A stretch of DNA of 64,000 nt, taken from positions 145,380-209,379 of the forward strand of contig JAFRKA010000016.1 in NCBI GenBank assembly GCA_017432005.1. Direction: 5' to 3'. Under the pieces are notes generated by a model that ran no database searches, was not told the origin of the DNA, and saw nothing but the letters and a program-made list of their open reading frames with translations. How positions within the stretch are numbered: the first letter of the stretch is position 1; each line of letters begins with the position of its first letter. The position numbers and the translations under genes are program-made. This document shows, piece by piece, positions 4,684 to 58,597 of the stretch. The stretch is from Erysipelotrichaceae bacterium. GTDB lineage: Bacteria; Bacillota_I; Bacilli_A; Erysipelotrichales; Erysipelotrichaceae.

Positions 4684-6769
4684 ATGATCAGGGCAATGGA
4701 GATCAGTGGGATTGTCATATCCCTATTTGCGTTTGCGTATGCTGCATGGCTTTATCTGTGGGTGAAAAACAGCCGCAGGAGAATGAGACGATCGAAAGGA
4801 TCGCTCAGCTGATTCAGGACGGTGCCAGAGCTTTTCTGGGCAGACAGTACGGGCTGCTGTTCAGATTTGCGGGACTGGTAGCAGTGATTATTTTCCTTTT
4901 ATTGCCTGAACCGGTCTGGAAGGGTCTTTCCATCCAGAATATGTTCATGGCTTTCTCATATATAGCCGGAACACTGTTTTCCGCTTTTGCGGGCAAGATC
5001 GGTATCGAAGTGGCGACGATCGCCAACGGACGCTGCGCCTATGCTGCCAGAGACGGCATCAAACCGGCTTTCATGACCGGTTTCAGGGGCGGAGCAGTCA
5101 TGGGTATGGCTGTCGTCGGTGCCTGCAACCTGGGAGTGTGTCTGGTATACATGCTGCTGGCTGATCCGCAGGCAGTACTGTGCTTCAGCTTCGGTGCCAG
5201 TTCCCTGGCGCTGTTTGCGAAAGTCGGTGGCGGTATCTTCACCAAGACGGCCGATATCGCAGCTGACCTGACCGGTAAAGTCGAACTGGGCATTCCGGAA
5301 GATGATCCGCGCAATCCGGCCGTCATTGCCGACAATGTCGGTGACAACGTCGGTGATGTGGCAGGCATGGGTGCTGACCTCTTTGACTCCAATGTCGCTT
5401 CGTTAGCCGCAGCGATCGTTATCGCGGCAAGTCTTGACCGGGTCTCTTCATTCCATTCAAATGTTGCGACCGTCTTCTGCTATGCAGGACTCGGACTGCT
5501 GGCTTCCATCCTGGGCGTCATGACCGCCAGGATCGGCAAAAACGGCAATCCGACCAGAGCACTTAACTCTTCGACCTATGTCACGACCGGCATCTACACC
5601 GTCCTGACGGCTCTGGCTACATATATCTTCAATTTCCGTTTTGAGATCTGGGCAGCCTGTATCCTGGGTCTGCTGGTCGGTGTCATCATCGGTATCACGA
5701 CCGACTACTTCACTGATGACAGCAAGTCTCCGGTCCACAACGTAGCGCATGCTTCACACACCGGTCCGGCGTTCACGATCCTTTCAGAGATCTCCTACGG
5801 TTTCCTGTCCACGATGCCGGCTATGATCGGTACCGGTATCTCTACCTTGATCTCTTATCGTCTCTGTGAGAATATCGATCCGCTCTACGGTTCTGAATAT
5901 GCGCTCTTCGGTATCTCCATGCAGCCGTCGGAATGTTGTCGATCGTCGGTATGATCGTCTCCAATGACGCCTACGGTCCGATCGTCGACAATGCCAGAGG
6001 TTTGGCGGAAATGGGTTCGCTGGGAGATGAAGTCCTCAAGATAACCGATGAACTGGATTCTGCCGGCAATACCGTCAAAGCCGTCACCAAGGGTTTCTCC
6101 ATCTCAGCTGCCGGTCTGACGGTCATCGCATTGCTTGGAACTTTCATGAGTGAAGTAAACAGCGCCGCAAGTCAGCTTGGTCTGCAGAGTGTTACCGGAT
6201 TCGATGTCATGGATCCGCTGGTCTTCTTCGGCATGCTGACAGGAGCAGCGATCCCGGCCGTCTTCTCAGCCGTACTGATGCTGGGAGTCGACCGCAATGC
6301 GCAGCGCATGGTCGCTGAGATCCATCGCCAGTTCAGTGAGATCCCGGGCCTCAGAGAGGGCAAAGCCGATCCTGATTACCGCCGCTGCATCGAGATCGCA
6401 GCTGACGGTGCGATCAGAGAACTGATCCCAGCCGGTGCCATTGCGATCATCTCCACGATCATCGTCGGTCTGATCGGCGGTGTCTCCGCCATCGCCGGTT
6501 TCCTGGTAGGCAATATCGTCAGCGGTCTTCTGCTTGCGCTGTTCATGTCCAATGCCGGCGGTCTGTGGGATAACGCCAAGAAGTATGTTGAAGCCGGCAA
6601 TGAGGGCGGCAAGGGTTCAGAAGCTCACAAGTCAGCTGTCGTCGGTGATACGGTCGGTGATCCTTTCAAGGATACGGCCGGTCCGAGCATCAATACGCAG
6701 ATCACTGTCGTCTCTTTGATCGCTTCGCTTCTTTCGACTTTATTCCTGACCTTCTCACTGTTCAGATAA
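4684..6769 (+). pseudogene. hppA: Membrane-bound proton-translocating pyrophosphatase, interrupted by two 1-nt deletions
   Basis: Three consecutive reading frames together rebuild one roughly 695-aa M-PPase. Frame 1 (4684-~4766) gives MIRAMEISGIVISLFAFAYAAWLYLWVK. ORF 4746..5954 continues with QPQENETIERIAQLIQDGARAFL. ORF 5933..6769 continues with [25 protein letters not shown]...[15 protein letters not shown]. The frame changes fall at the A5 run 4765-4769 and at about 5921. Confidence 0.85.
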
Positions 6770-6791
6770 CAGAAAACAGATCAGATAATTC

Positions 6792-6818
6792 AAAAGCGCC
6801 TTATACGGCGCCTTTTTT
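6792..6818. terminator. Bidirectional intrinsic terminator
   Basis: AAAA-GCGCC-ttatac-GGCGC-CTTTTTT, lying between convergent genes. Confidence 0.75.
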
Positions 6819-7500
6819 AAGCAATGTAGAAGAAGATGAGCAGGTAATGACACAGACTGCCCAGCAGTACCAGGATATGGAACACTTCATGTTCGCTCCA
6901 GTCTTTAGAGATCCTGATCTTGAATGCATAGATGATGCCGCCAAGGGTATACAGGATACCGCCTGTAAGCAGAAGGATAAAACCTCTGGGGTCAAGAGTC
7001 AGATAGATGGTACGGATCTTCATGATGGCCAGCCAGCCCATGAAGATATAAATGATCGAGGAGACATAGCGCGGACAGTAGACCCAGAACAGTTTCAGGA
7101 CCGTTCCCAGTAGAGCCGTCGCCCAGACGATACAAAGCAAGACCAGTCCGTCTTTGCCTAAGGCATTCAGACACAGCGGCGTATATGTACCGGCGATCAG
7201 GAAGAAGACACTGATGTGATCGATCTTCTTCAGGATCGTCGTATATCTTTCAGGAAGTACAAAAGTATGATAGGCACTGCTGGCTCCGTAGAGCGTGATC
7301 AGTGACAGACAGAAGATGCTCAGACACACCATGAGCAGGGGATCAGAGTTGCTGATGCCTGCCTTGGAAAGAAGTACTGGTGTAAAAAAGATCGAAGCGA
7401 TGAAACCGATAAAATGAGTCAGGGCACTGATCGGATCTTTGACGGAGATATAGGGTTTGTTTTCCAGCCGGTTCAGCTGGCGGATCCTCATTTCACTCAT
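6817..7500 (-). CDS. Hemolysin III / PAQR family membrane protein
   Basis: Seven predicted TM segments, with ALTHFIG, SSAYH and HEVFH motifs typical of the HlyIII/YplQ family. I place the start at ATG 7500, preceded by GGAGGAAAAAC, rather than at the ORF start 7605. Confidence 0.8.
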   Translation of the reverse strand: MSEMRIRQLNRLENKPYISVKDPISALTHFIGFIASIFFTPVLLSKAGISNSDPLLMVCLSIFCLSLITLYGASSAYHTFVLPERYTTILKKIDHISVFFLIAGTYTPLCLNALGKDGLVLLCIVWATALLGTVLKLFWVYCPRYVSSIIYIFMGWLAIMKIRTIYLTLDPRGFILLLTGGILYTLGGIIYAFKIRISKDWSEHEVFHILVLLGSLCHYLLIFFYIA

Positions 7501-46708: not shown

Positions 46709-46785
46709 GTGCCTATAGCTCAACTGGATAGAGTGTTTGGCTACGAACCAAAAGGTTGCGGGTTCAAGTCCTGCTAGGCACGCCA
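46709..46785 (+). tRNA. tRNA-Arg (anticodon ACG)
   Basis: GTGCCTATAGCTCAACTGGATAGAGTGTTTGGCTACGAACCAAAAGGTTGCGGGTTCAAGTCCTGCTAGGCACGCCA. Acceptor stem is GTGCCTA/TAGGCAC, the anticodon stem is TTTGG/CCAAA and the loop is CTACGAA. CCA is encoded. Confidence 0.9.
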
Positions 46786-46956: not shown

Positions 46957-48198
46957 ATGAAAGGTATTCATGTAACCAGTGAAATAAAGCCTTTAAAGAA
47001 GGTTTTATTGCACAGACCAGGTAAGGAACTGCTGAATCTCACACCGGACAGACTGAATGAACTGCTGTTCGACGATATTCCTTATCTTAAGATCGCTCAG
47101 GAAGAACACGATGCATTCGCCAAGATCCTGAGAGATAACGGTGTCGAAGTCGTATATCTTGAGGATCTGATGACTGAGGTTCTGGAACAGAATCCGAAAC
47201 TCGTTGAACCGTTCCTCTATCAGTGGCTGTCTGAAGGTAATATCAAGACCAAGAGATGGCAGGACAAACTGTATAACTATCTTATTTCCAACTACCATGG
47301 TAAAGACCTTGTCTTAAAGACCATGGAAGGTATCACTCTCAAGGAGATGGGAGACAGCATCAAGGCTTACTCCCTGCAGGACCGTATCGCACCGAGCGAT
47401 GATCTGATCGTCGATCCGATGCCTAACCTGTATTTCCAGAGAGACCCGTTCGCTTCTGTAGGTGAAGGTGTCTTCTTGCACAGAATGAAGTTCCCTACCA
47501 GAAACCGCGAAACCATCTATGCTGACTACATCTTCAAATATCACCCTGATTTTGCAGGTCTGATCAAGCGTTACTATGATCGTGACTACCACGCAAACAT
47601 CGAGGGTGGTGACGTATTCAATCTGACTGATACGGTACTGGCTATCGGTATCTCTCAGAGAACTTCTCCGGATGCAATCGAACTTGCCGCCAGGAATCTG
47701 TTCAATGATCATGACTGCAAGATCCGTACTGTACTGGCCTTCAGGATCCCTGAATCCCGTGCCTTCATGCATCTGGACACTGTCTTTACCAGGATCGACT
47801 ATGACAAGTATACAGTCCATCCGGCTATCATCGGTCCGCTGGAAGTATATGAGATCACTCCGACTCAGCGTGAAGACAGAAATCCTGACGACCTGCATAT
47901 CCAGCGTCTGGACATGAAACTCGAAGACATTCTGGCAAAATATACCGGTGTTGATAATGTCGAACTGATCTACTGCGGCGGTGATGATCTGATCGCAGCA
48001 GCCAGAGAACAGTGGAATGACGGTTCCAACACGCTGTGTATCGCTCCGGGAACGATCGTCTGCTACGAGCGTAACGATGTCACCAATGCGATCCTGCGTG
48101 AGAAGGGCCTGAATGTTCTGACCATCCCGAGTGCCGAACTTTCAAGAGGAAGAGGCGGCCCGAGATGTATGTCTATGCCTATTATCAGAGAAGACTAA
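46957..48198 (+). CDS. arcA: Arginine deiminase
   Basis: VTSEIKPLKKVLLHRPGKEL N-terminus and a C-terminal GGPRCMSMP motif (catalytic Cys). Confidence 0.95.
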   Translation: MKGIHVTSEIKPLKKVLLHRPGKELLNLTPDRLNELLFDDIPYLKIAQEEHDAFAKILRDNGVEVVYLEDLMTEVLEQNPKLVEPFLYQWLSEGNIKTKRWQDKLYNYLISNYHGKDLVLKTMEGITLKEMGDSIKAYSLQDRIAPSDDLIVDPMPNLYFQRDPFASVGEGVFLHRMKFPTRNRETIYADYIFKYHPDFAGLIKRYYDRDYHANIEGGDVFNLTDTVLAIGISQRTSPDAIELAARNLFNDHDCKIRTVLAFRIPESRAFMHLDTVFTRIDYDKYTVHPAIIGPLEVYEITPTQREDRNPDDLHIQRLDMKLEDILAKYTGVDNVELIYCGGDDLIAAAREQWNDGSNTLCIAPGTIVCYERNDVTNAILREKGLNVLTIPSAELSRGRGGPRCMSMPIIRED

Positions 48199-48218
48199 TT
48201 TAAAGGAGAAAAGAAAAA

Positions 48219-49211
48219 ATGGGAGTTAATTTAAGCGGACGCAGCTTCCTGAAGCTGCTGGACTTCACACCTGCCGAGATCAGATACATGCTGGATCTGG
48301 CGGCTGAATTCAAGAGACTGAAGAGAAATGGTGTTCCTCATGACTATCTGAGAGGCAAACAGATCGTTCTGCTGTTCGAAAAGACTTCGACCAGAACACG
48401 CTGCTCATTCGAAGTAGCCGGAAGAGACCTGGGTATGGGCGTTACATATCTTGATCCGGGTTCATCACAGATGGGCAAGAAGGAATCTCTTGAAGATACT
48501 GCAAGAGTATTGGGCAGAATGTATGACGGTATCGAATACCGTGGCTTCGATCAGTCGATCGTTGAAGAACTGGCTGAAAAATCAGGTGTTCCTGTCTGGA
48601 ACGGTCTGACTACGCAGTTCCATCCGACTCAGATGCTGGCTGACATTATGACCGCTGAAGAGAACTTAGGCGACATGAGAGGCAAGAAACTCGTCTTCAT
48701 GGGCGATGCCGGAAACAACGTTGCCAACTCGCTGATGGTCGTCTGTGCCAAGTTAGGTATCAATTTCGTTGCCTGCGGTCCTGAAAAGCAGATGCCTGCC
48801 AAGGAACTGGTAGAGACCTGCCGCAAGATCGCTGCCGAAAACGGAAGCACGATCACTCTTACTGAAGATGTCAAAGAAGGCACAAAGGGTGCTCATGTCA
48901 TCTATACCGATATCTGGGTATCCATGGGTGAACCTGATGATATCTGGGCTGAAAGGATCAAACTTCTTGAACCTTACCGCGTGACCAAGGAAGTCATGGC
49001 CAACGCTGATGAGCACGCCATCTTCTTACACTGTCTGCCTTCATTCCATGATACGAACACGACGATCGGTGCTGATATCGCCGAGAAGTTCGGTGTCAAG
49101 GAAATGGAAGTCGCTGACGAAGTATTTGAATCAAAACAGTCAAAGGTATTTGACGAAGCTGAAAACAGAATGCATACGATCAAGGCTGTCATGTATGCAA
49201 CGCTGAAATAA
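48219..49211 (+). CDS. arcB: Ornithine carbamoyltransferase (catabolic context)
   Basis: [11 protein letters not shown], a DxxHPxQ-like motif ([10 protein letters not shown]) and HCLPSFH motifs. It lies between arcA and arcC. Confidence 0.95.
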
Positions 49212-49213
49212 TC

Positions 49214-50149
49214 ATGGGCAAGCGTTTAGTTATAGCACTGGGCGGAAACGCTCTGGGCAATACGCCGCAGGAGCAGCTGGAGCTGGTCAAGAAGACCGCT
49301 TCCACGATCGTGGATCTGGTCGAGGAAGGCTATGATGTCGTTGTCGGACACGGTAACGGTCCGCAGGTCGGCATGGTCAACCTGGCATTTGAGAATTCTC
49401 ACAACAAGGTCGGCGGAACACCGGAGATGCCTTTCCCGGAGTGCGGAGCAATGACCCAGGGTTACATCGGTTATCATCTGCAGCAGTCGATCGGCAGAGA
49501 ACTCAAGAAAAGAGGCATGAACAAGCCTGTTGCGACAGTCGTTACACAGGTCGAAGTCGACAAAGCTGACAGTGCCTTTGAAAATCCGACCAAGCCTATC
49601 GGTTCCTTCTACACCAAGGAAGAAGCAGCGAAGATCGTAGCTGAGACTGGTTATACCTTCATTGAAGATGCCGGCAGAGGTTACAGAAGAGTCGTTCCTT
49701 CACCTAAACCGGTGTCGATCGTCGAACTGGAAACAGTTGAAAAACTCGTTTCTCAGGGCTGCATCGTCATTACGGTCGGTGGCGGCGGTATTCCGGTAGT
49801 AAAAGCCGGTGACTGGTACGAAGGTGTTGCGGCTGTCATCGATAAGGACAGAGCTTCAGCAAAACTGGCTCTGGATCTTAAGGCGGACATGCTGGTGATC
49901 CTGACGGCTGTTGATAAAGTTTCCATCAACTTCAACAAACCTGATCAGAAAGATCTTTCGGAAATATCGCTTGAAGAGGCCAGACAGTATATCGCTGAAG
50001 GTCACTTCGCCAAGGGCAGTATGTTGCCGAAGGTCGAATCATGCATCGATTATGTTGAAAAAACTGAAAACGGAAAGGCTCTGATAACTTCACTGGAAAA
50101 AGCCAAGGAAGCACTGCAGGGCAAGACCGGTACGATCATCCACGCTTAG
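49214..50149 (+). CDS. arcC: Carbamate kinase
   Basis: VIALGGNAL...VVGHGNGPQVG and ITVGGGGIPV motifs. Confidence 0.93.
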   Translation: MGKRLVIALGGNALGNTPQEQLELVKKTASTIVDLVEEGYDVVVGHGNGPQVGMVNLAFENSHNKVGGTPEMPFPECGAMTQGYIGYHLQQSIGRELKKRGMNKPVATVVTQVEVDKADSAFENPTKPIGSFYTKEEAAKIVAETGYTFIEDAGRGYRRVVPSPKPVSIVELETVEKLVSQGCIVITVGGGGIPVVKAGDWYEGVAAVIDKDRASAKLALDLKADMLVILTAVDKVSINFNKPDQKDLSEISLEEARQYIAEGHFAKGSMLPKVESCIDYVEKTENGKALITSLEKAKEALQGKTGTIIHA

Positions 50150-50189
50150 TGGATAAACATATTCCATAAGAAAAATAAAGGGGGAATAA

Positions 50190-51617
50190 ATGGAAAAGAA
50201 ACCTAGAAAGATGCTTACGTCTTTCACTATCCTGATCCTGATGATCCTGGCTCTCGCCGTATTATCATGGATCGTTGCTGCTATACCGGACAGCGGTGTT
50301 ACAGCTGCCGGATTCTCTACGATCATCAGATCGGTCGTTGACGGATTCTCTAATGCTGCAGGCTCAGGTGCTGACCTGATCGCCTTCATCTTCTGCATCG
50401 GCGGTTTCCTGGGCATCGTCAATTCTACAGGTGCTCTGGATACCGGTATTGCTACACTCGTCCGTAAACTGAACGGCCGTGAAGAGATCCTGATCGCTGC
50501 TGTCATGTTCGTCTTCTCTATCGGTGGTACGACATACGGCATGTGCGAAGAGACTGTTCCGTTCTACATCATGCTCGCATCCACAATGGTCGCAGCCGGT
50601 ATGGATACTCTGACCGGCGCACTGGCTGTTGCGCTCGGTGCCGGTGTCGGTGTTCTCGGTTCAACGATCAACCCGTTCTGCACGATGGCTGCTGTTGGCG
50701 CTCTTGACGGTGTCGGCATCTCTGTTGATACAGGCAAGATGATCGCTCTGGGTGTCGTGCTCTGGCTGTCTTCTTATGCTATTGCTTTATACTTCGTCCT
50801 GAAGTATGCCAAGAAAGTCAAAGCTGACAAGGGCTCTACTTTCCTTTCACTGCAGGAACAGAAGATCATGGAAGATGAATTCTCCAAGGGATATGATGCC
50901 AATGCCAAACTTTCAGGCAAGCAGAAACTCGTTCTCTGGATCTTCGGTCTTTCATTCGCTGTCATGATCTGCGGTTTCATTCCTTGGGAAGACTATGGCG
51001 TAACTCTGTTCTCAGGATGGTCTGAGTTCATCATGGGTGAAGGTATCCCGATGGGTTACTGGTACTTCGATGAAGGCGCAACACTCTTCTTCATCATGGC
51101 TATCGTCATCGGTTTCATCTACGGTATGGGCGAAGCTGAATTCGTTGAAACATTCATCAGAGGTTCTGCTGATCTGATCTCTGTTGCCTTCATCATCGCG
51201 GTTGCCAGAGGTGCAACGGTCCTGATGGGCAATACAGGTTTAGGAGAATGGCTGGTCAACGTTATCGCCGATACTCTGCGTGGTGTTCCGGGCTTCATCT
51301 ATGCTCCGCTGGCATACATCCTTTATCTGCCGCTGTCATTCCTGGTACCTTCGACTTCAGGTCTGGCCGGACTGTCAATGCCGATCATGGGTCCTGTTAC
51401 TGACCAGTTAGGATTCTCTGTTGAAGTAATGATCCTGATCTTCTCTGCAGCCAACGGCCTTATCAACCTCTTTGCTCCGACTGCCGGTGCACTGATGGGT
51501 GGTTTACAGACTGCCAAGATCGAATATCCGACTTATATGAAAGCTGCACTTAAGCCGATCATCGTCATCGGTATCGCCAATATCATTATCGTAACTGTTG
51601 CGATGATGATCATGTAA
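50190..51617 (+). CDS. YfcC/ArcD-family transporter (putative arginine/ornithine antiporter)
   Basis: 475-aa polytopic protein with a YfcC-type N-terminus (K.LTSFTILILMIL...). It is the last gene of the arc operon. Confidence 0.75.
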   Translation: MEKKPRKMLTSFTILILMILALAVLSWIVAAIPDSGVTAAGFSTIIRSVVDGFSNAAGSGADLIAFIFCIGGFLGIVNSTGALDTGIATLVRKLNGREEILIAAVMFVFSIGGTTYGMCEETVPFYIMLASTMVAAGMDTLTGALAVALGAGVGVLGSTINPFCTMAAVGALDGVGISVDTGKMIALGVVLWLSSYAIALYFVLKYAKKVKADKGSTFLSLQEQKIMEDEFSKGYDANAKLSGKQKLVLWIFGLSFAVMICGFIPWEDYGVTLFSGWSEFIMGEGIPMGYWYFDEGATLFFIMAIVIGFIYGMGEAEFVETFIRGSADLISVAFIIAVARGATVLMGNTGLGEWLVNVIADTLRGVPGFIYAPLAYILYLPLSFLVPSTSGLAGLSMPIMGPVTDQLGFSVEVMILIFSAANGLINLFAPTAGALMGGLQTAKIEYPTYMKAALKPIIVIGIANIIIVTVAMMIM

Positions 51618-51688: not shown

Positions 51689-52987
51689 ATGAGAAAAATG
51701 AAGAACGCCGATCTGAGAGAGATCCAGGAACAGTACTGTTCGAGTTATGATAAGCGTAAACTCTGTTCTTACGATATCGAATATATCGATTCTGAAACCA
51801 AACCGCTGATCCATACTTCATCCAGGTTCTGGTTCTTTTTATCAGGAAAAGCTACGATCATGATCAATGGTCGGGAGTATCCGGTAAAACAGAATTCCTT
51901 TGTGGCGATCCTGCCCTGGGATACGACCATCATCACCAAAGTAAAAGAACCTATCCATTTCATCAAGATCGTCTACAACAGCGAATTCCTTTACGATGTC
52001 CGTTATAACTACAACACTTCAGGTGAATTTCTTTCGCTAATCAATCCGATCGTCGAGAATCCGGTGATCCAGCTGACGAAAGAAGAAGTGCGTTATGTCA
52101 CGATGGTCATGGATCAGATCAAGGCGGAAGTCGGAACAGAATCGATGTATGATATTCCCAAGGAAAAGATCCTAAGCAATATCTTTGTCTCCAACAAGCT
52201 CATCGAACTGCTTATCGCTTTCGTCCGTATCGCTTCCAAAGTCGATCTCAAGCGCATCGACGGCAAGTCGATGGAACTGGATGACCGCCCGGCGATCTAC
52301 AAGTACATCTATTCGCATATCTCTCAGAACGTCACACTTAAGGTACTGTCGGAGATCTTCTATATGTCGGAATCATCTATCTCCAAATATATCTCGGATG
52401 TCACAGGATTGTCGTTCTCAGATCTGGTCAACGAAATGCGCATAACCAAGACCGTCGATCTGCTTACTTATACCGATCTTTCCCTGAATGATATCGCTGA
52501 ATTCGTCGGTTTCTCCGATGCTTCTTACCTGATCAAGACCTTTACCAAGCGTATGAATCTTTCACCTTCTGAATATCGCAATATCTATCAGGCAAAGGAA
52601 CATATCTTCAAGGAGAAAGACAAATCAGTCAGTTTCGAGATCCTGTCATATATAAACAATCATTATACGGAAGATATCAAGATCTCCGATATCGTGGATA
52701 AATTCAAAGTCAGCTATGTCGATGTGAACCGATCATTGTTATATCTGGTCGAGAAAAACTTCGATGACCTTCTGCATTATCTGCGCATCAACAGAGCTTG
52801 CGAAATGCTGCTGACCGGAGATGATCCGATCGTTGAGATCGCTGCTGCTGTCGGATACAACAACAACAAGACTTTTACCCGCAATTTCATCAGACTGAAA
52901 AAAATGACACCCGGATATTTCCGCAAGAACATCTCTCTGCAAAGAGATGCCGAGATCATAAGTGAAGAAGAAAAAACCGATGAATGA
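51689..52987 (+). CDS. AraC-family regulator with cupin-like N-domain and two tandem AraC-type DNA-binding domains
   Basis: The first HTH_18-like unit is IYKYIYSHISQNVTLKVLSEIF...IAEFVGFSDASYLIKTFTKRMNLSPSEYR. The second is ILSYINNHYTEDIKISDIVDKF...IAAAVGYNNNKTFTRNFIRLKKMTPGYFRK. I moved the start to 51689 because the ORF start at 51665 lies inside the terminator hairpin; 51698 is also possible. Confidence 0.75.
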   Translation: MRKMKNADLREIQEQYCSSYDKRKLCSYDIEYIDSETKPLIHTSSRFWFFLSGKATIMINGREYPVKQNSFVAILPWDTTIITKVKEPIHFIKIVYNSEFLYDVRYNYNTSGEFLSLINPIVENPVIQLTKEEVRYVTMVMDQIKAEVGTESMYDIPKEKILSNIFVSNKLIELLIAFVRIASKVDLKRIDGKSMELDDRPAIYKYIYSHISQNVTLKVLSEIFYMSESSISKYISDVTGLSFSDLVNEMRITKTVDLLTYTDLSLNDIAEFVGFSDASYLIKTFTKRMNLSPSEYRNIYQAKEHIFKEKDKSVSFEILSYINNHYTEDIKISDIVDKFKVSYVDVNRSLLYLVEKNFDDLLHYLRINRACEMLLTGDDPIVEIAAAVGYNNNKTFTRNFIRLKKMTPGYFRKNISLQRDAEIISEEEKTDE

Positions 52988-54011
52988 AATAATAAAACAA
53001 CTTTTTACTGATCTGCATGAAAATCCTGAAAGCTCGGAAAGAGAAGAAAAGACCAGAAAGATCATCACTGAATTCATGAACAGAAACACTTCCATGGAAT
53101 ACTATGAACTTCCCGGAGGTTTTTATTATGTCTATCGTTCACCGAAAGGTCTCAAGAACATTGCGATAAGAGCTGATTATGATGCGGTGACCTGTGATGA
53201 TCACAAGGCCAGACACCTGTGCGGACATGACGGACATGCGACATCTCTATGTGCGCTGGCTTTATTGCTGGAAGAAAAAGGCTGTGACAACAACGTTTTT
53301 CTTCTGTTTCAGTCGGCTGAAGAGAACGGCGAAGGCGCAAAGAAATGCCTGGATATATTCAATGAAAAGATCGATGTGATCTATGGTCAGCATAATCTTC
53401 CCGGTTTTGCATTCGGAAAGGTATTTACCTCATACAATACTTTTGCGTGTACTTCCTGCGGGCTCATCATCAGACTCAAAGGAAAAAGTAGTCATGCGGC
53501 TTATCCGGAACTTGGAATCTCTCCCGGTCATCTTAGCGCAGAGATACTTAAGAAGATAGAAGGATACCATACTCTGGAGAAGATGATCACCCTCATTGGG
53601 GTGAAGATCGGAGAAAAAACTTTCGGCGTCATGGCACATGAAGCAGAGATATATCTGACTCTTCGCAGCACCACTGACGAGAATCTGAAAGAACTGGAAG
53701 AGGAGCTGATCTCCTATATCGATATGAACAAGGGAGAACTGAAATTCTCTTATGAGAAGATCGATCACTTTCCGGCTGTCTTCAATGATAAAGAGGAAGC
53801 ACAGAGAGTACTGGACAGACTTGACGGCGAACTTCTGAAAGAACCGATGCGCTGGAGCGAGGATTTCGCTCACTATCTGAAAGGACATAAAGGTGCCTTC
53901 TTCGGTATCGGTGCAGGGGAGAAACATCCCGGTCTGCATACAGCAGAATATGTCTATCCTGTTGAACTGATCGATATCACAAGAGACTGTTTTTATGGTT
54001 TGGTGAAATGA
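52980..54011 (+). CDS. M20D-family amidohydrolase (N-acyl-amino-acid deacylase-like)
   Basis: HLCGHDGH metal-binding motif and FQSAEE. It overlaps the AraC-family gene at its 5' end and the GNAT gene at its 3' end. Confidence 0.75.
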   Translation: MNEIIKQLFTDLHENPESSEREEKTRKIITEFMNRNTSMEYYELPGGFYYVYRSPKGLKNIAIRADYDAVTCDDHKARHLCGHDGHATSLCALALLLEEKGCDNNVFLLFQSAEENGEGAKKCLDIFNEKIDVIYGQHNLPGFAFGKVFTSYNTFACTSCGLIIRLKGKSSHAAYPELGISPGHLSAEILKKIEGYHTLEKMITLIGVKIGEKTFGVMAHEAEIYLTLRSTTDENLKELEEELISYIDMNKGELKFSYEKIDHFPAVFNDKEEAQRVLDRLDGELLKEPMRWSEDFAHYLKGHKGAFFGIGAGEKHPGLHTAEYVYPVELIDITRDCFYGLVK

Positions 54012-54526
54012 GATACAGACTGGCAAAAGAAAACGAGCTCCAAGAGCTCTGTGAATTATATGATCGCATCATCCTGCAGCAGCAGTACGATGAATACGGA
54101 CCCGGCTGGACCAGAGACGTCTATCCTGCCAGAAGCGATCTTAAAGATCATCTGAATAAAGACCTTGTCTATGTCATGGATGAAGAAGGAAAACTAGCGG
54201 GTGCCGGTGTTATATCGTTACATGAAGATGAGATGTATAAAAAAGGCAAGTGGTCACGAAAGCTGAAGGATGAGGAAGTAGCTGTCTTGCATCTCTTTGG
54301 TATCGATCCGGCATTCAGGGGAAAAGGATATACGCAGGAATTTCTGAAGTATATCATCGAGGAGACAGGAAAGACATCCAGAGCGATCCATCTCGATGTC
54401 GTAAAAGGGAACATTCCGGCTTACAGAGTCTATGAGAAAGCCGGTTTCATGTCGGCAGGTGATCTGGGAGTCTGGTATGAAGATACCGGTGATATCACTG
54501 TCGATCTGATGGAGTATAACTATTAA
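54008..54526 (+). CDS. GNAT family N-acetyltransferase
   Basis: LHLFGIDPAFRGKGYTQEFLKY is acetyl-CoA-binding motif A (R/Q-x-x-G-x-G/A). Confidence 0.8.
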   Translation: MRYRLAKENELQELCELYDRIILQQQYDEYGPGWTRDVYPARSDLKDHLNKDLVYVMDEEGKLAGAGVISLHEDEMYKKGKWSRKLKDEEVAVLHLFGIDPAFRGKGYTQEFLKYIIEETGKTSRAIHLDVVKGNIPAYRVYEKAGFMSAGDLGVWYEDTGDITVDLMEYNY

Positions 54527-54560
54527 AGATGCAGACAAATGTCTGCATCTTTATCTTTTT
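54526..54560. terminator. Bidirectional terminator
   Basis: AAGATGCAGAC-aaat-GTCTGCATCTT stem followed by TATCTTTTT, between convergent genes. Confidence 0.8.
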
Positions 54561-57000
54561 ATAAAACTGTATTTCGCTTATCGATGTCCAGGATCTCGAT
54601 CCTGTTTTCACCACCCAGGTTCTTACTGATAAGTTCAGACAGTTCATTCAGCGCTGTCTCGAATTCCTCTGTCCTTGAAGGATCGACCAGTTCGATGATC
54701 ATGAAGGCATTCTTCGTATCTTCTGTCAGCATCGTTCTGACGCCTTCACGCCAGTTCCAGCAGCGGCAGATCGCACCCTGATCATCTTTGTAGCAGATCT
54801 CTCCGGCATACGGAGATTCGTTCTCATCGTCACCGCCGTAGGTCACGAACTCTTCGTTTCCATCAGCCATCGTCAGGCAGATATTGCCGACGAACTTGTC
54901 GATGTCTTCACCGCCGCATGGCATTGCGTATTTAAGTGAGACTGAATTGTAGATATCGACCAGCGGATTGATATTGCCGATATGATTGCCTTTGTAGACA
55001 CGTTTGAGCAGAGCCTCGATCGAAGATCTGGCTCCTTTCTTCGTCTTGAACTTGCTGAAGGCATCACGCCAGACAGATATGACTCTGTTTTTGGACAGTT
55101 CCGCATCCGGAAGATACTTAAGGCATTCTTTCTCGCCGTTTCTGAGCAGTTCAGAATACTGATCTTCTTTTTCGATCTTGTTGTTGATGCCCTTGCATAC
55201 GATGATACCGATCTTTGCTTCAGGGAAGAGTTTCCAGAAATCGTTTCTGATGATGAATCTGGTCTGTCCGTCATCGGCAAATTCTTCATCCTGACCGAGA
55301 TCACGAACGACGACTTCTTCTTTCTTCACTTCTTTCTTTTCCTCTTTCTCCATGACTTCCGGAGCATTTACACCCAGCAGATACAGAGCGTTTTTCAGCG
55401 TGATCCTGGTCGCTTCAGCCAGCGCAAGTCTTTCGTTGGTCAGCTGCGGATCGTTCTTGTCGTTGATCTTGCAGGAGCTGTAGAAAGAATGGAAATAAGT
55501 AGCGAGCTTATAGACATAGTTGCAGATCTTGTTAGGACTGCGGGTAGCAGCAGCTTCGGCTACGACTTCCGTAAAGGAGTTTATGTGCTTGAGCAGATCG
55601 ACTTCCTTCGGATTGCTTAACCGTGTATAGGTATCCTGTTTTTCAACCTTTTTATCCGCCTGTTTCAGAACTGAACAGATACGCGCATAGGCATACTGAA
55701 CATAGTATACCGGGTTGTCATTCGACCTGGTCCTGGCCAGTGTCAGGTCAAAGTCAAGATGTGTATCCAGAGCCTTGGACAGGAAGAAGTATCTTGCGGA
55801 ATCGATGCCGATATCGTCGACCAGTTCTCTCAGTGTGATCGCATTACCGGTACGCTTGGACATCTTGACTTCCTGACCGTTTTCGATCATTCTGACCATC
55901 TGACAGATATCGACCTGCAGATTGTCACGCGGATAGCCCAATGCTTCCATGGCGGCCTTCATACGCGGGATATATCCGTGATGATCGGCACCCCAGATGT
56001 TTACCAGCAGCTCATAGCCTCTGTCGTATTTGTACAGGTGGTTGGCGATATCCGGAGTCATATAGGTATAGTAACCGTCTGATTTGCGAAGGACACGGTC
56101 TTTATCATCACCGTATTTTGTCGCCGCGAACCAGACAGCTCCGTCTTTTTCATAAAGCAGGCCCATGGAATCCATCTTTTCAATGGCTTTATCGACCATG
56201 CCCTGATCGACGATCCACTGCTCGGATACCCAGGAATCAAATTCACAGCCGAAATATTCCAGGTCTTTCTTGATCCTTTCGAGTTCCATCTTCTTGCCTA
56301 TCTCTTTGAGTTCGGCTACAGCTTCCTCTTCCGGCATTTTGATGTATTTGTCACCGTACATCTCATTGATCTCTTTAGTGATCTCGATGACATCAGGTCC
56401 GTGATAACCGTCTTCCGGCAGGGTGAAATCCAGACCGTAGAGTTCTCTGTAACGGGCGAGGATAGATTTGCCCAGATTGAGGATCTGTGCTCCGGCATCA
56501 TTGATGTAGTATTCTCTCAAGGCATCATAACCGGCGGCTTTCATGATCCTGACACAGGAATCGCCCCAGCAGGCGCCACGCGCATGTCCGCAGTGTAAAG
56601 GACCGGTCGGGTTGGCTGATACATACTCTTCCAGTACTTTGAGTCCGTTACCGGCGTTGGAGTGTCCGTATTCATCTTTGGCATCGATGACGGTATTGAT
56701 GACTCCGGCCATCGCATCCTTCTTGAGCCAGAAGTTGATAAAGCCCGGTCCGGCTATTTCGATATCCTGAACTTCGTCAAGTCGATTAAGCAGTTCACTT
56801 CTGAATTCTTCAGCGATCTCCTTAGGAGCGCGTTTCAGGAGTTTGGTCAGACGCATGGCGATATTGGTAGAATAGTCACCCTTGGTATTGTCCTTAGGGA
56901 TCTCGACCATCGCGAGATTCTCATCAGCTTCGATGCCGTATTTTTCCTTGACGATCTCAGCTATGTTTTGTACGATCTTATCCTCAATATTCATTTTCAT
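54559..57000 (-). CDS. argS: Arginine--tRNA ligase fused to a C-terminal B3/B4 (COG3382, PheRS-beta editing-domain-like) module
   Basis: aa 1-550 form a complete ArgRS: SANPTGPLHCGHARG (HIGH), KMSKRTG (KMSKS), DALREYYINDAG, ending ...GVNAPEVM. aa 551-813 comprise the EKEEKKEVKKEE linker and then the B3/4-family motifs INPLVDIYNSVSL, GGEDID, CRCWNWREGVRTMLTEDT. It is a single uninterrupted ORF with a GAGGTGA RBS. Confidence 0.9.
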   Translation of the reverse strand: MKMNIEDKIVQNIAEIVKEKYGIEADENLAMVEIPKDNTKGDYSTNIAMRLTKLLKRAPKEIAEEFRSELLNRLDEVQDIEIAGPGFINFWLKKDAMAGVINTVIDAKDEYGHSNAGNGLKVLEEYVSANPTGPLHCGHARGACWGDSCVRIMKAAGYDALREYYINDAGAQILNLGKSILARYRELYGLDFTLPEDGYHGPDVIEITKEINEMYGDKYIKMPEEEAVAELKEIGKKMELERIKKDLEYFGCEFDSWVSEQWIVDQGMVDKAIEKMDSMGLLYEKDGAVWFAATKYGDDKDRVLRKSDGYYTYMTPDIANHLYKYDRGYELLVNIWGADHHGYIPRMKAAMEALGYPRDNLQVDICQMVRMIENGQEVKMSKRTGNAITLRELVDDIGIDSARYFFLSKALDTHLDFDLTLARTRSNDNPVYYVQYAYARICSVLKQADKKVEKQDTYTRLSNPKEVDLLKHINSFTEVVAEAAATRSPNKICNYVYKLATYFHSFYSSCKINDKNDPQLTNERLALAEATRITLKNALYLLGVNAPEVMEKEEKKEVKKEEVVVRDLGQDEEFADDGQTRFIIRNDFWKLFPEAKIGIIVCKGINNKIEKEDQYSELLRNGEKECLKYLPDAELSKNRVISVWRDAFSKFKTKKGARSSIEALLKRVYKGNHIGNINPLVDIYNSVSLKYAMPCGGEDIDKFVGNICLTMADGNEEFVTYGGDDENESPYAGEICYKDDQGAICRCWNWREGVRTMLTEDTKNAFMIIELVDPSRTEEFETALNELSELISKNLGGENRIEILDIDKRNTVL

Positions 57001-57048: not shown

Positions 57049-57072
57049 ATAAAAAAGCCGGCAATGCCGGCT
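57049..57072 (-). terminator. Intrinsic terminator (for the gene at 57095..58597) upstream of argS
   Basis: On the - strand: AGCCGGC-att-GCCGGCT stem followed by TTTTTT. Confidence 0.8.
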
Positions 57073-57094: not shown

Positions 57095-58597
57095 TCAGTC
57101 TTTATCGGTAAGATCCTTTACGACATCGACGATGTCTTTGGCACCGAGCAGACCGTTTTTCTTTTCATAGGCTCCTGTACCGGACCCGGTCGCCGTGACG
57201 ATCGCATCAAGATCATTGACCAGTCCGCTCACACTTGCCACAGTATCCATGCCCAGGATCGAAGCGACATCGGAGATGATCGTTGCCGTACCGGTAATGC
57301 CAAGATCACCGTCTTCGACAGTCGACTTTATATCCCTGCCGGAGACGAAGGCACTTATGACTGATGAAACACCAGGTATGCCTAACAGATCACAGACCAT
57401 TCCGATGTTCTCCAGAGACGCGTCAGACTTCAGATCTGGTTTTAAGATCGGCAGGATCAGTCTGATCATGATGTCTTTCGGATCGGCATTGAACGGAACA
57501 TATCCGACGATCTGTTTATCGTTTTTCAGCTGTTCGAGTTTTTCTTTGATCACGTTCAGCAGTGATTTATTAATCACCAGACCAAGAGGGATCTTTTCCA
57601 GATCGTCTTTCTTCTTTGCCAGGACCTCATTCAGTCTTTCTTCATCGTTGATATCGCAGATATACAGATGTGCTTCAGCTTCAGCAGCAGCCTCATCCGG
57701 CTCTGTTTCAGAATCTTCTTCCGGTTCGACTACTTCCAGATAATGTCTGTTTTTGAGCGTTTTGATCAGTTCTTCATCTTCTGTGCAAACAAAGACGGTC
57801 TTGTCTTCCAGCGACGGTTTGAGATTATCTTCTTCATCCTCTTCTTTCTTCGCTTCTTTTTCGCCTTTCTGTTTCTTTACTGAAGTGACATCAGTTTTCT
57901 TCCGGTTTTTCTTTCCAAGCATCATCATCGCTGCTGCAGCTCCAAGAAGGAGAACGGATCCGCCGATCAGAAGCGGTGAGATCCCGGAATCATTAAAAGT
58001 CTGATTGTCAGAAACGGTCTGGTTATTGTTCGGGGTATTGTTATCATCGTTACCGGAGATCGCATTGATGGCTCCGGCTTCGGCACTCTCTTCGCCGATC
58101 GTCAGTTCAACGAGATTGCTTTTGGAAGGAACATAGTTCTCATCATATGATTCGACACCGATCAGGACTTTCGTTCCGGCCTTGACTTCTTCGTTTTCAC
58201 CGAAATACAGTTCCTGATCCGTGATCGTGATCTTGCCGGTGCCGGTCAGATAGACTCTGACTCTGTCGTTGGTATCGACCGTCATAATGCCAAGGATCGA
58301 CAGGATGTTCCCAAGACTCAGAAATCTGCCGATACTGTTTTCGAGTTCTCCCTCGATCAGCATATACAGCTCATATTCATGAGCGATATCTTCCTTGGTC
58401 TGAGTGATCTCTACTGTCAGTTTTCTGGTCCTGGTCTCATATCTGACCTTGTCGAGAAAGATCTCTTCTGATTCGATCCATTCCTCGATACCTTCTGTTT
58501 CATCTGCCATGACTATCGAAGTCGAAGGGAAAAGACATGAAAGGACAAGAGTCATGATCATGATGATCTTGTTTATAGTACTGATTCTGTTTTTCAT
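57095..58597 (-). CDS. Hypothetical bitopic membrane protein (signal peptide, extracellular domain, TM, acidic cytoplasmic domain)
   Basis: Signal-like N-terminus INKIIMIMTLVLSCLF...VMADE, an Asn-rich linker, a TM segment ISPLLIGGSVLLLGAAAAMMMLG, a KKNRKK stop-transfer sequence, then about 260 aa with no recognised motif. Confidence 0.55.
   Translation of the reverse strand: MKNRISTINKIIMIMTLVLSCLFPSTSIVMADETEGIEEWIESEEIFLDKVRYETRTRKLTVEITQTKEDIAHEYELYMLIEGELENSIGRFLSLGNILSILGIMTVDTNDRVRVYLTGTGKITITDQELYFGENEEVKAGTKVLIGVESYDENYVPSKSNLVELTIGEESAEAGAINAISGNDDNNTPNNNQTVSDNQTFNDSGISPLLIGGSVLLLGAAAAMMMLGKKNRKKTDVTSVKKQKGEKEAKKEEDEEDNLKPSLEDKTVFVCTEDEELIKTLKNRHYLEVVEPEEDSETEPDEAAAEAEAHLYICDINDEERLNEVLAKKKDDLEKIPLGLVINKSLLNVIKEKLEQLKNDKQIVGYVPFNADPKDIMIRLILPILKPDLKSDASLENIGMVCDLLGIPGVSSVISAFVSGRDIKSTVEDGDLGITGTATIISDVASILGMDTVASVSGLVNDLDAIVTATGSGTGAYEKKNGLLGAKDIVDVVKDLTDKD

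Follow-up and report, generated by a model that had tools for sequence, protein, structure and literature searches.

A probable canavanyl-tRNA(Arg) deacylase joined to the C-terminus of arginyl-tRNA synthetase in ruminant-gut Erysipelotrichaceae

Our analysis of a 64,000-nucleotide stretch of an Erysipelotrichaceae genome (assembly GCA_017432005.1, contig JAFRKA010000016.1, positions 145,380 to 209,379 of the forward strand; the whole stretch is hereafter called the window) centers on one gene, argS-ctdA, in which an arginyl-tRNA synthetase (ArgRS) continues past its usual C-terminus into a second domain. This gene probably encodes an ArgRS that bears a complete CtdA-1-type canavanyl-tRNA(Arg) deacylase on its C-terminus by way of a flexible acidic linker of ~30 residues, i.e. 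a synthetase with its own post-transfer editor against canavanine. Both components are known families; their union is new to the literature that we searched.

The gene is one uninterrupted open reading frame (ORF) of 813 amino acids, with an ATG start, a TAA stop, and no internal stop, and is divided as follows:

54559..57000, minus strand: argS-ctdA fusion gene, 813 codons plus TAA, with TIGR00456 and PF03483 matches and 15 homologous fusion clusters
56728..56979, minus strand: ArgRS N-terminal (Add1) domain, residues 8-91, PF03485 (Arg_tRNA_synt_N), 74.6 bits
55798..56682, minus strand: ArgRS class I catalytic domain, residues 107-401, PF00750 (tRNA-synt_1d), with HCGH at residues 136-139 and KMSKR at residues 379-383
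55351..55701, minus strand: DALR anticodon-binding domain, residues 434-550, PF05746 (DALR_1), 131 bits, whole profile covered, C-terminal end ...GVNAPEVM
55261..55350, minus strand: acidic Glu/Lys linker, predicted to be disordered, residues 551-580 (EKEEKKEVKKEEVVVRDLGQDEEFADDGQT), from model confidence and the cluster alignment
54562..55260, minus strand: putative CtdA-type (B3/4 fold) aminoacyl-tRNA deacylase module, residues 581-813 (233 residues), from PF03483, PDB matches, TM-scores, and pocket residues

The initial annotation of this DNA had described a single 813-residue ORF with a complete ArgRS (residues 1-550), a Lys/Glu linker, and a module with signature motifs of the B3/4 family, and all of this is borne out: the ORF is intact, TIGR00456 covers residues 5-550, the linker (EKEEKKEVKKEE...) is found, and all three quoted motifs lie in the module. 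Its architecture stands, but its boundaries had to be redrawn, as the ~250-residue module that it placed at nt 54562-55350 comprises a linker at nt 55261-55350 and a module of 233 residues at nt 54562-55260. It had also stated that the ArgRS part ends at ...GVNAPEVM, where free-standing ArgRS proteins end; distant ArgRS proteins do stop exactly at that Met, but all unfused ArgRS proteins of the same clade (P0016-P0120; loci L001 and L010-L018) carry 3-9 acidic residues past it (AKED, SKDED, AKEEE, and similar). These acidic tails could be what is left of a linker since lost, or else the stretch from which the linker grew.

The ArgRS half is complete. Residues 5-550 align with model positions 1-569 of TIGR00456, the arginine--tRNA ligase equivalog, at 490.2 bits (cut-off 261.65); the Add1, Rossmann catalytic, and DALR domains follow one another in the order required for ArgRS; the HCGH and KMSKR class I motifs are intact in 15/15 fusion clusters; and the first two-thirds of an AlphaFold2 model of the protein match ArgRS crystal structures. 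No alignment position separates fused from unfused ArgRS orthologues at 80% consensus, and co-adaptation of the ArgRS half was rejected on this ground. The fused argS lies in the same EamA-argS-GNAT synteny as the unfused argS of sister species, and is most simply read as the housekeeping argS.

The C-terminal module is matched by Pfam B3_4 (PF03483) at residues 644-782 (99.1 bits, gathering cut-off 29.3). The sole significant sequence matches of the module in the PDB are 9f7e, the CtdA canavanyl tRNA deacylase (E = 2.8e-33), and 9mkl (E = 5.6e-31); the β-subunit of phenylalanyl-tRNA synthetase (PheRS), the other B3/4 protein in question, reaches E = 0.48, which is not significant. The AlphaFold2 model has a mean predicted local distance difference test score (pLDDT) of 81, with ~90 in the module, and superimposes on complete CtdA chains with template-modeling (TM) scores, normalized to the CtdA chain, of 0.80 (9f7e) and 0.79 (9mkl) over ~233 columns, as compared to 231 and 226 residues in the two chains. 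The module is 66-68% identical to B3/4 proteins of Clostridium perfringens over 93% of its length. NCBIfam holds no CtdA-specific model, and the module matches only its pheT model, weakly (TIGR00472, 16.9-19.5 bits against a cut-off of 402.65); the other domains of the PheRS β-subunit are absent, and so are the PheRS editing-site residues, with Gly and Glu at the equivalents of His265 and Gly318 (E. coli numbering), as in CtdA.

Stand-alone proteins of COG3382, to which the initial annotation had likened the module, were described there as having no established function. That statement is outdated: Hauth et al. 2023 (PMC10018355) showed that the stand-alone B3/4 protein of Pseudomonas canavaninivorans is a canavanyl-tRNA(Arg) deacylase and that a C. 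perfringens homologue kept canavanyl-tRNA(Arg) from accumulating in vitro, and the family has been known as CtdA since 2023 (PMC10018355, PMC12449066, PMC12268091; PDB 9f7e, 9mkl). Because CtdA is already characterized, the “Rosetta stone” argument from the fusion rediscovers a known function and predicts no new one. The CtdA family consists of CtdA-1 and CtdA-2, the latter lacking C166, and the CtdA that has been characterized is strongly selective for the canavanyl moiety (PMC12449066).

The residues that form the CtdA pocket are conserved in the module. Maldonado et al. 2025 (PMC12449066) reported the structure of Salmonella enterica CtdA and defined its pocket from structure, docking, and mutagenesis; mutants at N105, G116, C166, and Q173 inactivate CtdA or shift its specificity. 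The six pocket residues N105, G116, E118, C166, Q173, and I189 correspond to N685, G696, E698, C745, E752, and I768 of the fusion protein, and these are identical in 15/15 fusion clusters. C745 is the equivalent of C166, the residue that sets CtdA-1 apart from CtdA-2; E752, at the position of Q173, is the same substitution as in the active C. perfringens CtdA; and further residues mutated in the study PMC12268091 (S80, Y104, S108, and E191) are also conserved in the clusters, as judged by eye from the same alignment. Given the Pfam, PDB, fold, and pocket results, the module passes every computable test of CtdA-1 membership except that of being a free-standing, single-domain protein, as it is covalently joined to ArgRS; as judged by its sequence, it is a member of CtdA-1. 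The covalent fusion is the point of novelty and leaves the catalytic definition of CtdA unaffected.

The fusion is found well beyond the window. A search of 5.8 billion protein clusters returned 15 clusters of 787-816 residues with the same architecture (69-100% identical), drawn from ENA, Logan, JGI, and NCBI assemblies, and the identical 813-residue protein is predicted on numerous separate ENA contigs, the longest of them 249 kb. In the 14 further clusters, with diverged DNA, both halves stay in one frame across a hypervariable linker. The intact fusion ORF was verified directly in the DNA of locus L003; both halves were matched on one strand in L006-L009 by tblastn; and whole-ORF extraction gave fusion ORFs of 811-819 residues in L007-L009. 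In pairwise comparisons of the 15 clusters, the ArgRS part averages 76.9% identity and the B3/4 part 71.6%, as against 34.2% in the linker, and the ArgRS and CtdA identities are correlated (r = 0.79), so that both domains are under constraint and co-inherited. The linker is net acidic and 26-35 residues long throughout, with indels and free sequence turnover but with the frame always kept, and where the stand-alone protein has its Met1, the module lacks a start codon. This is the pattern left by a fusion that selection maintains, and not by a stop codon that was overlooked. The missed stop or frameshift that the initial annotation wished to see checked in raw reads is thus excluded by comparative data, i.e. 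by the independent contigs and the 14 diverged clusters, and raw reads are not needed for it.

Public annotation presents the gene differently. For the window, NCBI lists a 264-residue “B3/4 domain-containing protein” (MBQ6493602.1, window 54562-55353) that starts at Met550; for L003 it lists a 269-residue B3/4 protein (6001-6810) and leaves the 1.9 kb of argS without a gene call; and P0121, a probable further case, is a 264-residue B3/4 protein on a 2.5-kb contig. Because such records report only the B3/4 part of 264-269 residues, surveys of domain architecture under-count the fusion.

We propose that the fusion protein acts in three steps. The ArgRS would not discriminate fully against canavanine, which legumes make and which is the oxa-analogue of arginine, and would therefore form some canavanyl-tRNA(Arg), as is established for other ArgRS proteins; the tethered module would then hydrolyze the canavanyl ester and spare Arg-tRNA(Arg), as has been demonstrated for stand-alone homologues and as its 67% identity to the C. 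perfringens proteins and its identical pocket suggest; and the fusion would supply one editor per synthetase, at high local concentration near the tRNA during charging and release. Published work on the separate enzymes is consistent with this scheme: ArgRS charges canavanine; CtdA hydrolyzes canavanyl-tRNA(Arg) at 0.1 nM in deacylation assays and at 5 nM in aminoacylation assays; and EF-Tu does not shield canavanyl-tRNA(Arg), whereas ArgRS and EF-Tu do shield Arg-tRNA(Arg) (PMC12449066). The hydrolytic domain resides in the same polypeptide as the synthetic site, as in cis-editing synthetases.

Both domains of the AlphaFold2 model are confident, but pLDDT falls below 50 at residues 552-566 of the linker and the predicted TM-score (pTM) of the whole chain is 0.59, so that no confident interdomain geometry can be read from the model. 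Given the disordered linker, the low pTM, and the attachment at the anticodon-binding end of ArgRS, we favor a module that would act as a tethered trans-editor rather than as a cis-editing site held rigidly in place. That linker length varies so little despite sequence turnover fits a functional tether. The anticodon of a tRNA lies ~70-75 Å from its acceptor (CCA) end, and by our estimate a linker of 26-35 residues (contour length ~110 Å at 30 residues) together with a domain of ~40 Å could span this distance. The DALR domain, to which the module is attached, is the domain that reads the anticodon (PMC4742068).

The fused gene has a distinct neighborhood in the window, with the following features:

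57056..57072, minus strand: terminator-like hairpin after the upstream 500-residue gene, leaving a leader of ~55 nt before argS-ctdA
54524..54553, no strand assigned: hairpin between the convergent GNAT and argS-ctdA genes, likely a bidirectional terminator, a 13-bp stem followed by a T-run
54008..54526, plus strand: GNAT acetyltransferase (PF00583), which adjoins argS and/or ctdA in every examined relative whose contig extends past the gene (L001, L003-L006, L072)
52962..54011, plus strand: M20-family peptidase/amidohydrolase (PF01546, PF07687), with a 4-nt overlap with the GNAT start, conserved in L003-L006
51665..52987, plus strand: AraC-family regulator (PF12833, PF00165), kept beside ctdA/M20 in relatives
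46957..51617, plus strand: arcA (arginine deiminase, ADI), arcB (ornithine carbamoyltransferase, OTCase), arcC (carbamate kinase), and a DcuC-family carrier, by Pfam; the same block precedes araC-ctdA-GNAT in L072-L074
46553..46629, minus strand, and 46709..46785, plus strand: divergent tRNA-Arg pair (UCU and ACG, respectively), by ARAGORN and Rfam, directly upstream of arcA

The tRNA-Arg pair, arcABC, and argS-ctdA together make up a 10-kb arginine-devoted locus. The initial annotation had placed the ADI pathway ~8 kb from the fused gene, in line with ADI genes at 46957-50149, which lie ~4.4-7.6 kb from position 54559 and 6.9-10 kb from the start of the gene at 57000. In terms of gene neighborhood, there is a genuine association with the arc locus, and it more plausibly reflects a shared theme of arginine and arginine analogues than mischarging with citrulline or ornithine. 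The M20 and GNAT genes, with AraC alongside, go together with argS and/or ctdA in all examined relatives with enough contig beyond the gene (L003-L006, L072). The GNAT gene lies 2-3 nt from ctdA on the same strand in L006 and L072, and its product might acetylate an arginine analogue; homology to the GNAT of Lactobacillus curiae that is selective for canavanine (PMC10416765) was considered and dropped, because a PDB sequence search gave generic GNAT matches only (E ≥ 1.6e-8), the L. curiae protein not being among them, and no similarity to it was detected. An Rfam search detected no riboswitch at the gathering threshold in the window, and no T-box or guanidine riboswitch upstream of the gene, nor any around it at E ≤ 1; the sole sub-threshold match, SpF36 (32.7 bits against a gathering threshold of 48), coincides with the terminator hairpin at 54524-54553 and was taken as chance.

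Directly upstream of argS-ctdA, window 57095-58597 (minus strand) holds a 500-residue ORF with no Pfam match, an N-terminal hydrophobic segment, a second one at approximately residues 210-230, and a region rich in Lys and Glu; relatives do not have this ORF here and carry a gene for an EamA transporter in its place. Inside the linker DNA (window 55327-55350, minus strand), a purine-rich AGAGGA precedes an in-frame GTG (codon 558) by ~10 nt. Free CtdA could in principle be initiated internally at this GTG; the AGAGGA/GTG feature is not conserved in the other fusion clusters. L006 (GCA_045642525.1), which carries the fusion, encodes a 386-residue protein (5686-6846) with weak AlaX-like matches (tRNA-synt_2c, tRNA_SAD, and DHHA1) in the interval from an AraC regulator to the M20 gene, a short way upstream of argS-ctdA, and this protein may be a second trans-editing factor of the cluster.

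Among one-genome-per-species representatives, three species carry the fusion, all of them Erysipelotrichaceae known from metagenome-assembled genomes (of water-buffalo rumen, goat jejunum, and goat duodenum), and all fusion carriers that could be traced are ruminant-gut Erysipelotrichaceae. About a dozen sister species, with ArgRS proteins 73-82% identical, lack the fusion and show no ctdA in the flanks that were retrieved (up to 8 kb, less on short contigs). Four states of ctdA are found among these relatives: it is absent in L001 and L010-L018; it is a free gene within arcA-arcB-arcC-dcuC-araC-ctdA-GNAT in L072-L074; it is a separate gene right after argS in L005, where the argS stop and the ctdA start overlap in ATGA behind a purine-rich, Shine-Dalgarno-like stretch, and in L075, where it starts 1 nt after argS; and it is fused in the window and the other fusion loci. 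In a neighbor-joining tree of the ArgRS part, fused and unfused proteins are interleaved, and every one of the clade's deepest branches is a fusion. The ctdA tree separates the stand-alone proteins of clostridia from a group made up of fused modules, split forms, and P0141, the free ctdA found in the arc locus. It is likely that the fusion arose within the clade of ruminant-gut Erysipelotrichaceae. The most economical reading, its direction being taken from a distance tree and not proven, is that ctdA would have entered the arginine-deiminase/AraC/GNAT locus of this lineage, would then have come to sit downstream of argS as an overlapping gene, and would have been fused when the stop was lost and the purine-rich junction expanded into the Glu/Lys linker, with repeated loss or splitting thereafter.

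Several other explanations of the gene deserve to be weighed against a canavanine editor. The two-gene form does exist in the close relatives L005 and L075, and NCBI annotates only the 264-residue protein for the window sequence, as if adjacent argS and ctdA genes had been merged by a sequencing or assembly error that deleted a stop codon; but the 26-35 codons of the linker are missing from the two-gene form, the fusion turns up across 15 diverged clusters and numerous separate assemblies, in frame every time, the module lacks a start codon for itself, and the 264-residue product merely begins at the last ArgRS residue. Such an artifact, ruled out by the comparative evidence, has practically no probability left. 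A real fusion could still be an auxiliary ArgRS, expressed conditionally under AraC control for canavanine-proof charging when analogues are present, with a separate housekeeping argS elsewhere. The locus looks accessory (AraC, GNAT, M20, and arc genes), and close species differ in whether they have the module; nevertheless, we consider this very unlikely, as the gene occupies the same EamA-argS-GNAT slot as the only argS recovered from unfused sister genomes, no residue distinguishes it from unfused orthologues, and it is read from a separate short leader that follows a terminator, in convergent orientation to the AraC-M20-GNAT unit.

The remaining two explanations concern what the module does. 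It may be an active tRNA(Arg) deacylase for another or broader set of arginine analogues, such as indospicine from Indigofera forage, homoarginine, or citrulline and ornithine: CtdA is weakly active on Arg-tRNA(Arg) and the authors of that work raise additional substrates (PMC12449066); indospicine, the main alternative candidate, is likewise a forage arginine analogue met by ruminants (PMC8226729, PMC12546413); and the gene stands beside an arc operon. Against this, which we hold to be unlikely, the pocket is residue for residue that of canavanine-selective CtdA-1, C166 included; no other substrate has been demonstrated for any CtdA; and we found no evidence of ArgRS charging citrulline or ornithine. 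The editing of citrulline or ornithine and the causal link to ADI products that the initial annotation had suggested thus find nothing in their support, whereas its suggestion that the module clears canavanine-mischarged tRNA(Arg) agrees with the experiments on stand-alone homologues. Or the module may be catalytically dead, an appended tRNA-binding or dimerization domain that raises the affinity of ArgRS for tRNA(Arg), as appended domains do elsewhere; B3/4 domains bind tRNA at its 3′ end, the CtdA of S. enterica is dimeric, and another ArgRS (P0278, see below) has a Lys-rich C-terminal tail that resembles a general RNA-binding extension. We regard a dead module as highly improbable: the six pocket residues are conserved in 15/15 clusters, S80, Y104, S108, and E191 appear to be kept as well, the module is nearly as well conserved as the essential ArgRS half, and the CtdA of P. 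canavaninivorans is monomeric.

A tethered canavanyl-tRNA(Arg) editor remains the reading that we prefer, although several points weigh against it. The presumed activity and selectivity of the fusion come by homology, and the C. perfringens sequences compared here are from the same species as the assayed homologue, while a match to its accession, WP_004456252.1, could not be confirmed. The module is attached at the anticodon-binding end, far from the synthetic site, and AlphaFold2 gives no defined interdomain interface, so that true cis-editing, with translocation of the CCA end on one enzyme molecule, is unsupported. Free CtdA is already effective at nanomolar levels and out-competes EF-Tu (PMC12449066), and the benefit of fusion is unproven. 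Many sister species lost or never had the module, which is therefore dispensable; and the locus shows neither a guanidine riboswitch or other canavanine-linked regulator nor an identified canavanine-degrading enzyme.

Other ArgRS proteins carry extensions as well. Among the best 150 matches in a search of 1.84 billion representatives, in which an unfused representative at 50% identity stands in for the whole fusion clade and so masks it, just one other protein combines B3/4 and ArgRS. This protein, P0257 (849 residues; L071 6001-8550, JGI metagenome 3300072073), has the reverse order, with an N-terminal B3/4 domain, a Lys/Glu-rich linker, and a complete ArgRS that is 38% identical to the ArgRS of the window; its pocket reads L/G/Y/T/D/F instead of N/G/E/C/Q/I, which places it in a different subfamily, and among 5.8 billion clusters it is a singleton on one contig. 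As a singleton with a different pocket, P0257 is weak evidence for convergence; the association of B3/4 with ArgRS may recur. Directly upstream of P0257 lies a stand-alone B3/4 paralogue, 56% identical and with the same L/G/Y/T/D/F pocket (the two together span L071 5207-8550), and the neighbors include a prenyltransferase/CHAT-domain gene and IS21 elements. P0278 (695 residues) is an ArgRS whose canonical end, ...APDKM, is followed by a C-terminal tail of ~125 residues with much Lys, Ala, and Thr; a C-terminal extension of ArgRS is thus tolerated in another lineage, and this one looks like a non-specific RNA-binding appendage.

ArgRS is among the synthetases without a described editing domain, as the initial annotation had noted and as Hauth et al. 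state explicitly (PMC10018355), and protection against canavanine has only recently been traced to free-standing CtdA. The literature leaves open how CtdA recognizes its tRNA and cooperates with ArgRS. A natural ArgRS-CtdA protein is an independent sign that both enzymes share one substrate pool, and offers a tractable system in which to ask whether proximity improves editing or protects Arg-tRNA(Arg). If the module does edit tRNA bound to, or just released from, its own ArgRS, the fusion would be a natural system for gauging what tethering adds to trans-editing, and a ready-made part for canavanine-proof translation. Canavanine is a storage and defense compound of legumes (PMC10018355, PMC12449066), and legume forage is a plausible source of it in the ruminant gut; the fusion indicates that bacteria of the ruminant gut are under real selection by canavanine or related toxins of forage. 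The relatives record the successive steps by which a trans-editing factor turns into a domain of a synthetase.

Comparison with known systems locates what is new. The three CtdA papers (PMC10018355, PMC12449066, PMC12268091) treat CtdA as a stand-alone protein and mention no fusion, and we found no description of an ArgRS-CtdA union in the literature searched, which included a genome-mining paper on deacylases. We therefore think it somewhat probable that this is the first natural ArgRS to contain a proofreading domain, that no class I synthetase before it was seen to have acquired the B3/B4 editing fold, otherwise known only from class II PheRS, and that it represents the conversion of a trans-editor into a domain with every intermediate surviving and with repeated reversal. 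The module shares with CtdA-1 (P. canavaninivorans, 9f7e; S. enterica, 9mkl; C. perfringens) the full fold (B3, B4, and the CtdA-specific helical insert), the six-residue pocket, and presumably the chemistry; every described CtdA is free-standing and single-domain, whereas here it is the C-terminal domain of an ArgRS and would be made stoichiometrically with the synthetase. Control by guanidine-I/IV riboswitches is frequent in the CtdA family, though not defining, and we see none here. With bacterial ArgRS (TIGR00456; 3fnr, 5yym, 5b63) the protein shares the three domains, the class I motifs, and the fold, and the unfused ArgRS proteins of sister species are orthologues of its ArgRS, encoded at the syntenic position; bacterial ArgRS ends at the canonical C-terminal Met, whereas here a linker and a 233-residue putative deacylase lie beyond it.

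The B3/B4 domain of the PheRS β-subunit shares with the module the B3/4 fold, a conserved Asn in the equivalent position, and, presumably, post-transfer hydrolysis at the 3′ end of a mischarged tRNA. The two differ in pocket and context: PheRS has His265 and Gly318 where the module has Gly and Glu (Glu/Gln in CtdA), the insertions differ, and the PheRS editing domain is packed into the body of a class II synthetase, whereas the module hangs on a flexible tether from a class I synthetase. The closest functional parallels are the pairs formed by ProRS INS and YbaK/ProXp, AlaRS and AlaX, and ThrRS N2 and ThrRS-ed, in which one hydrolytic fold likewise serves both as trans-editor and as synthetase domain for the same tRNA. 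In those pairs the cis form is ancient and widespread; for ArgRS and CtdA the trans form dominates, the cis form appears young and is confined to one family, and the stand-alone, adjacent-gene, and fused stages all survive among close relatives.

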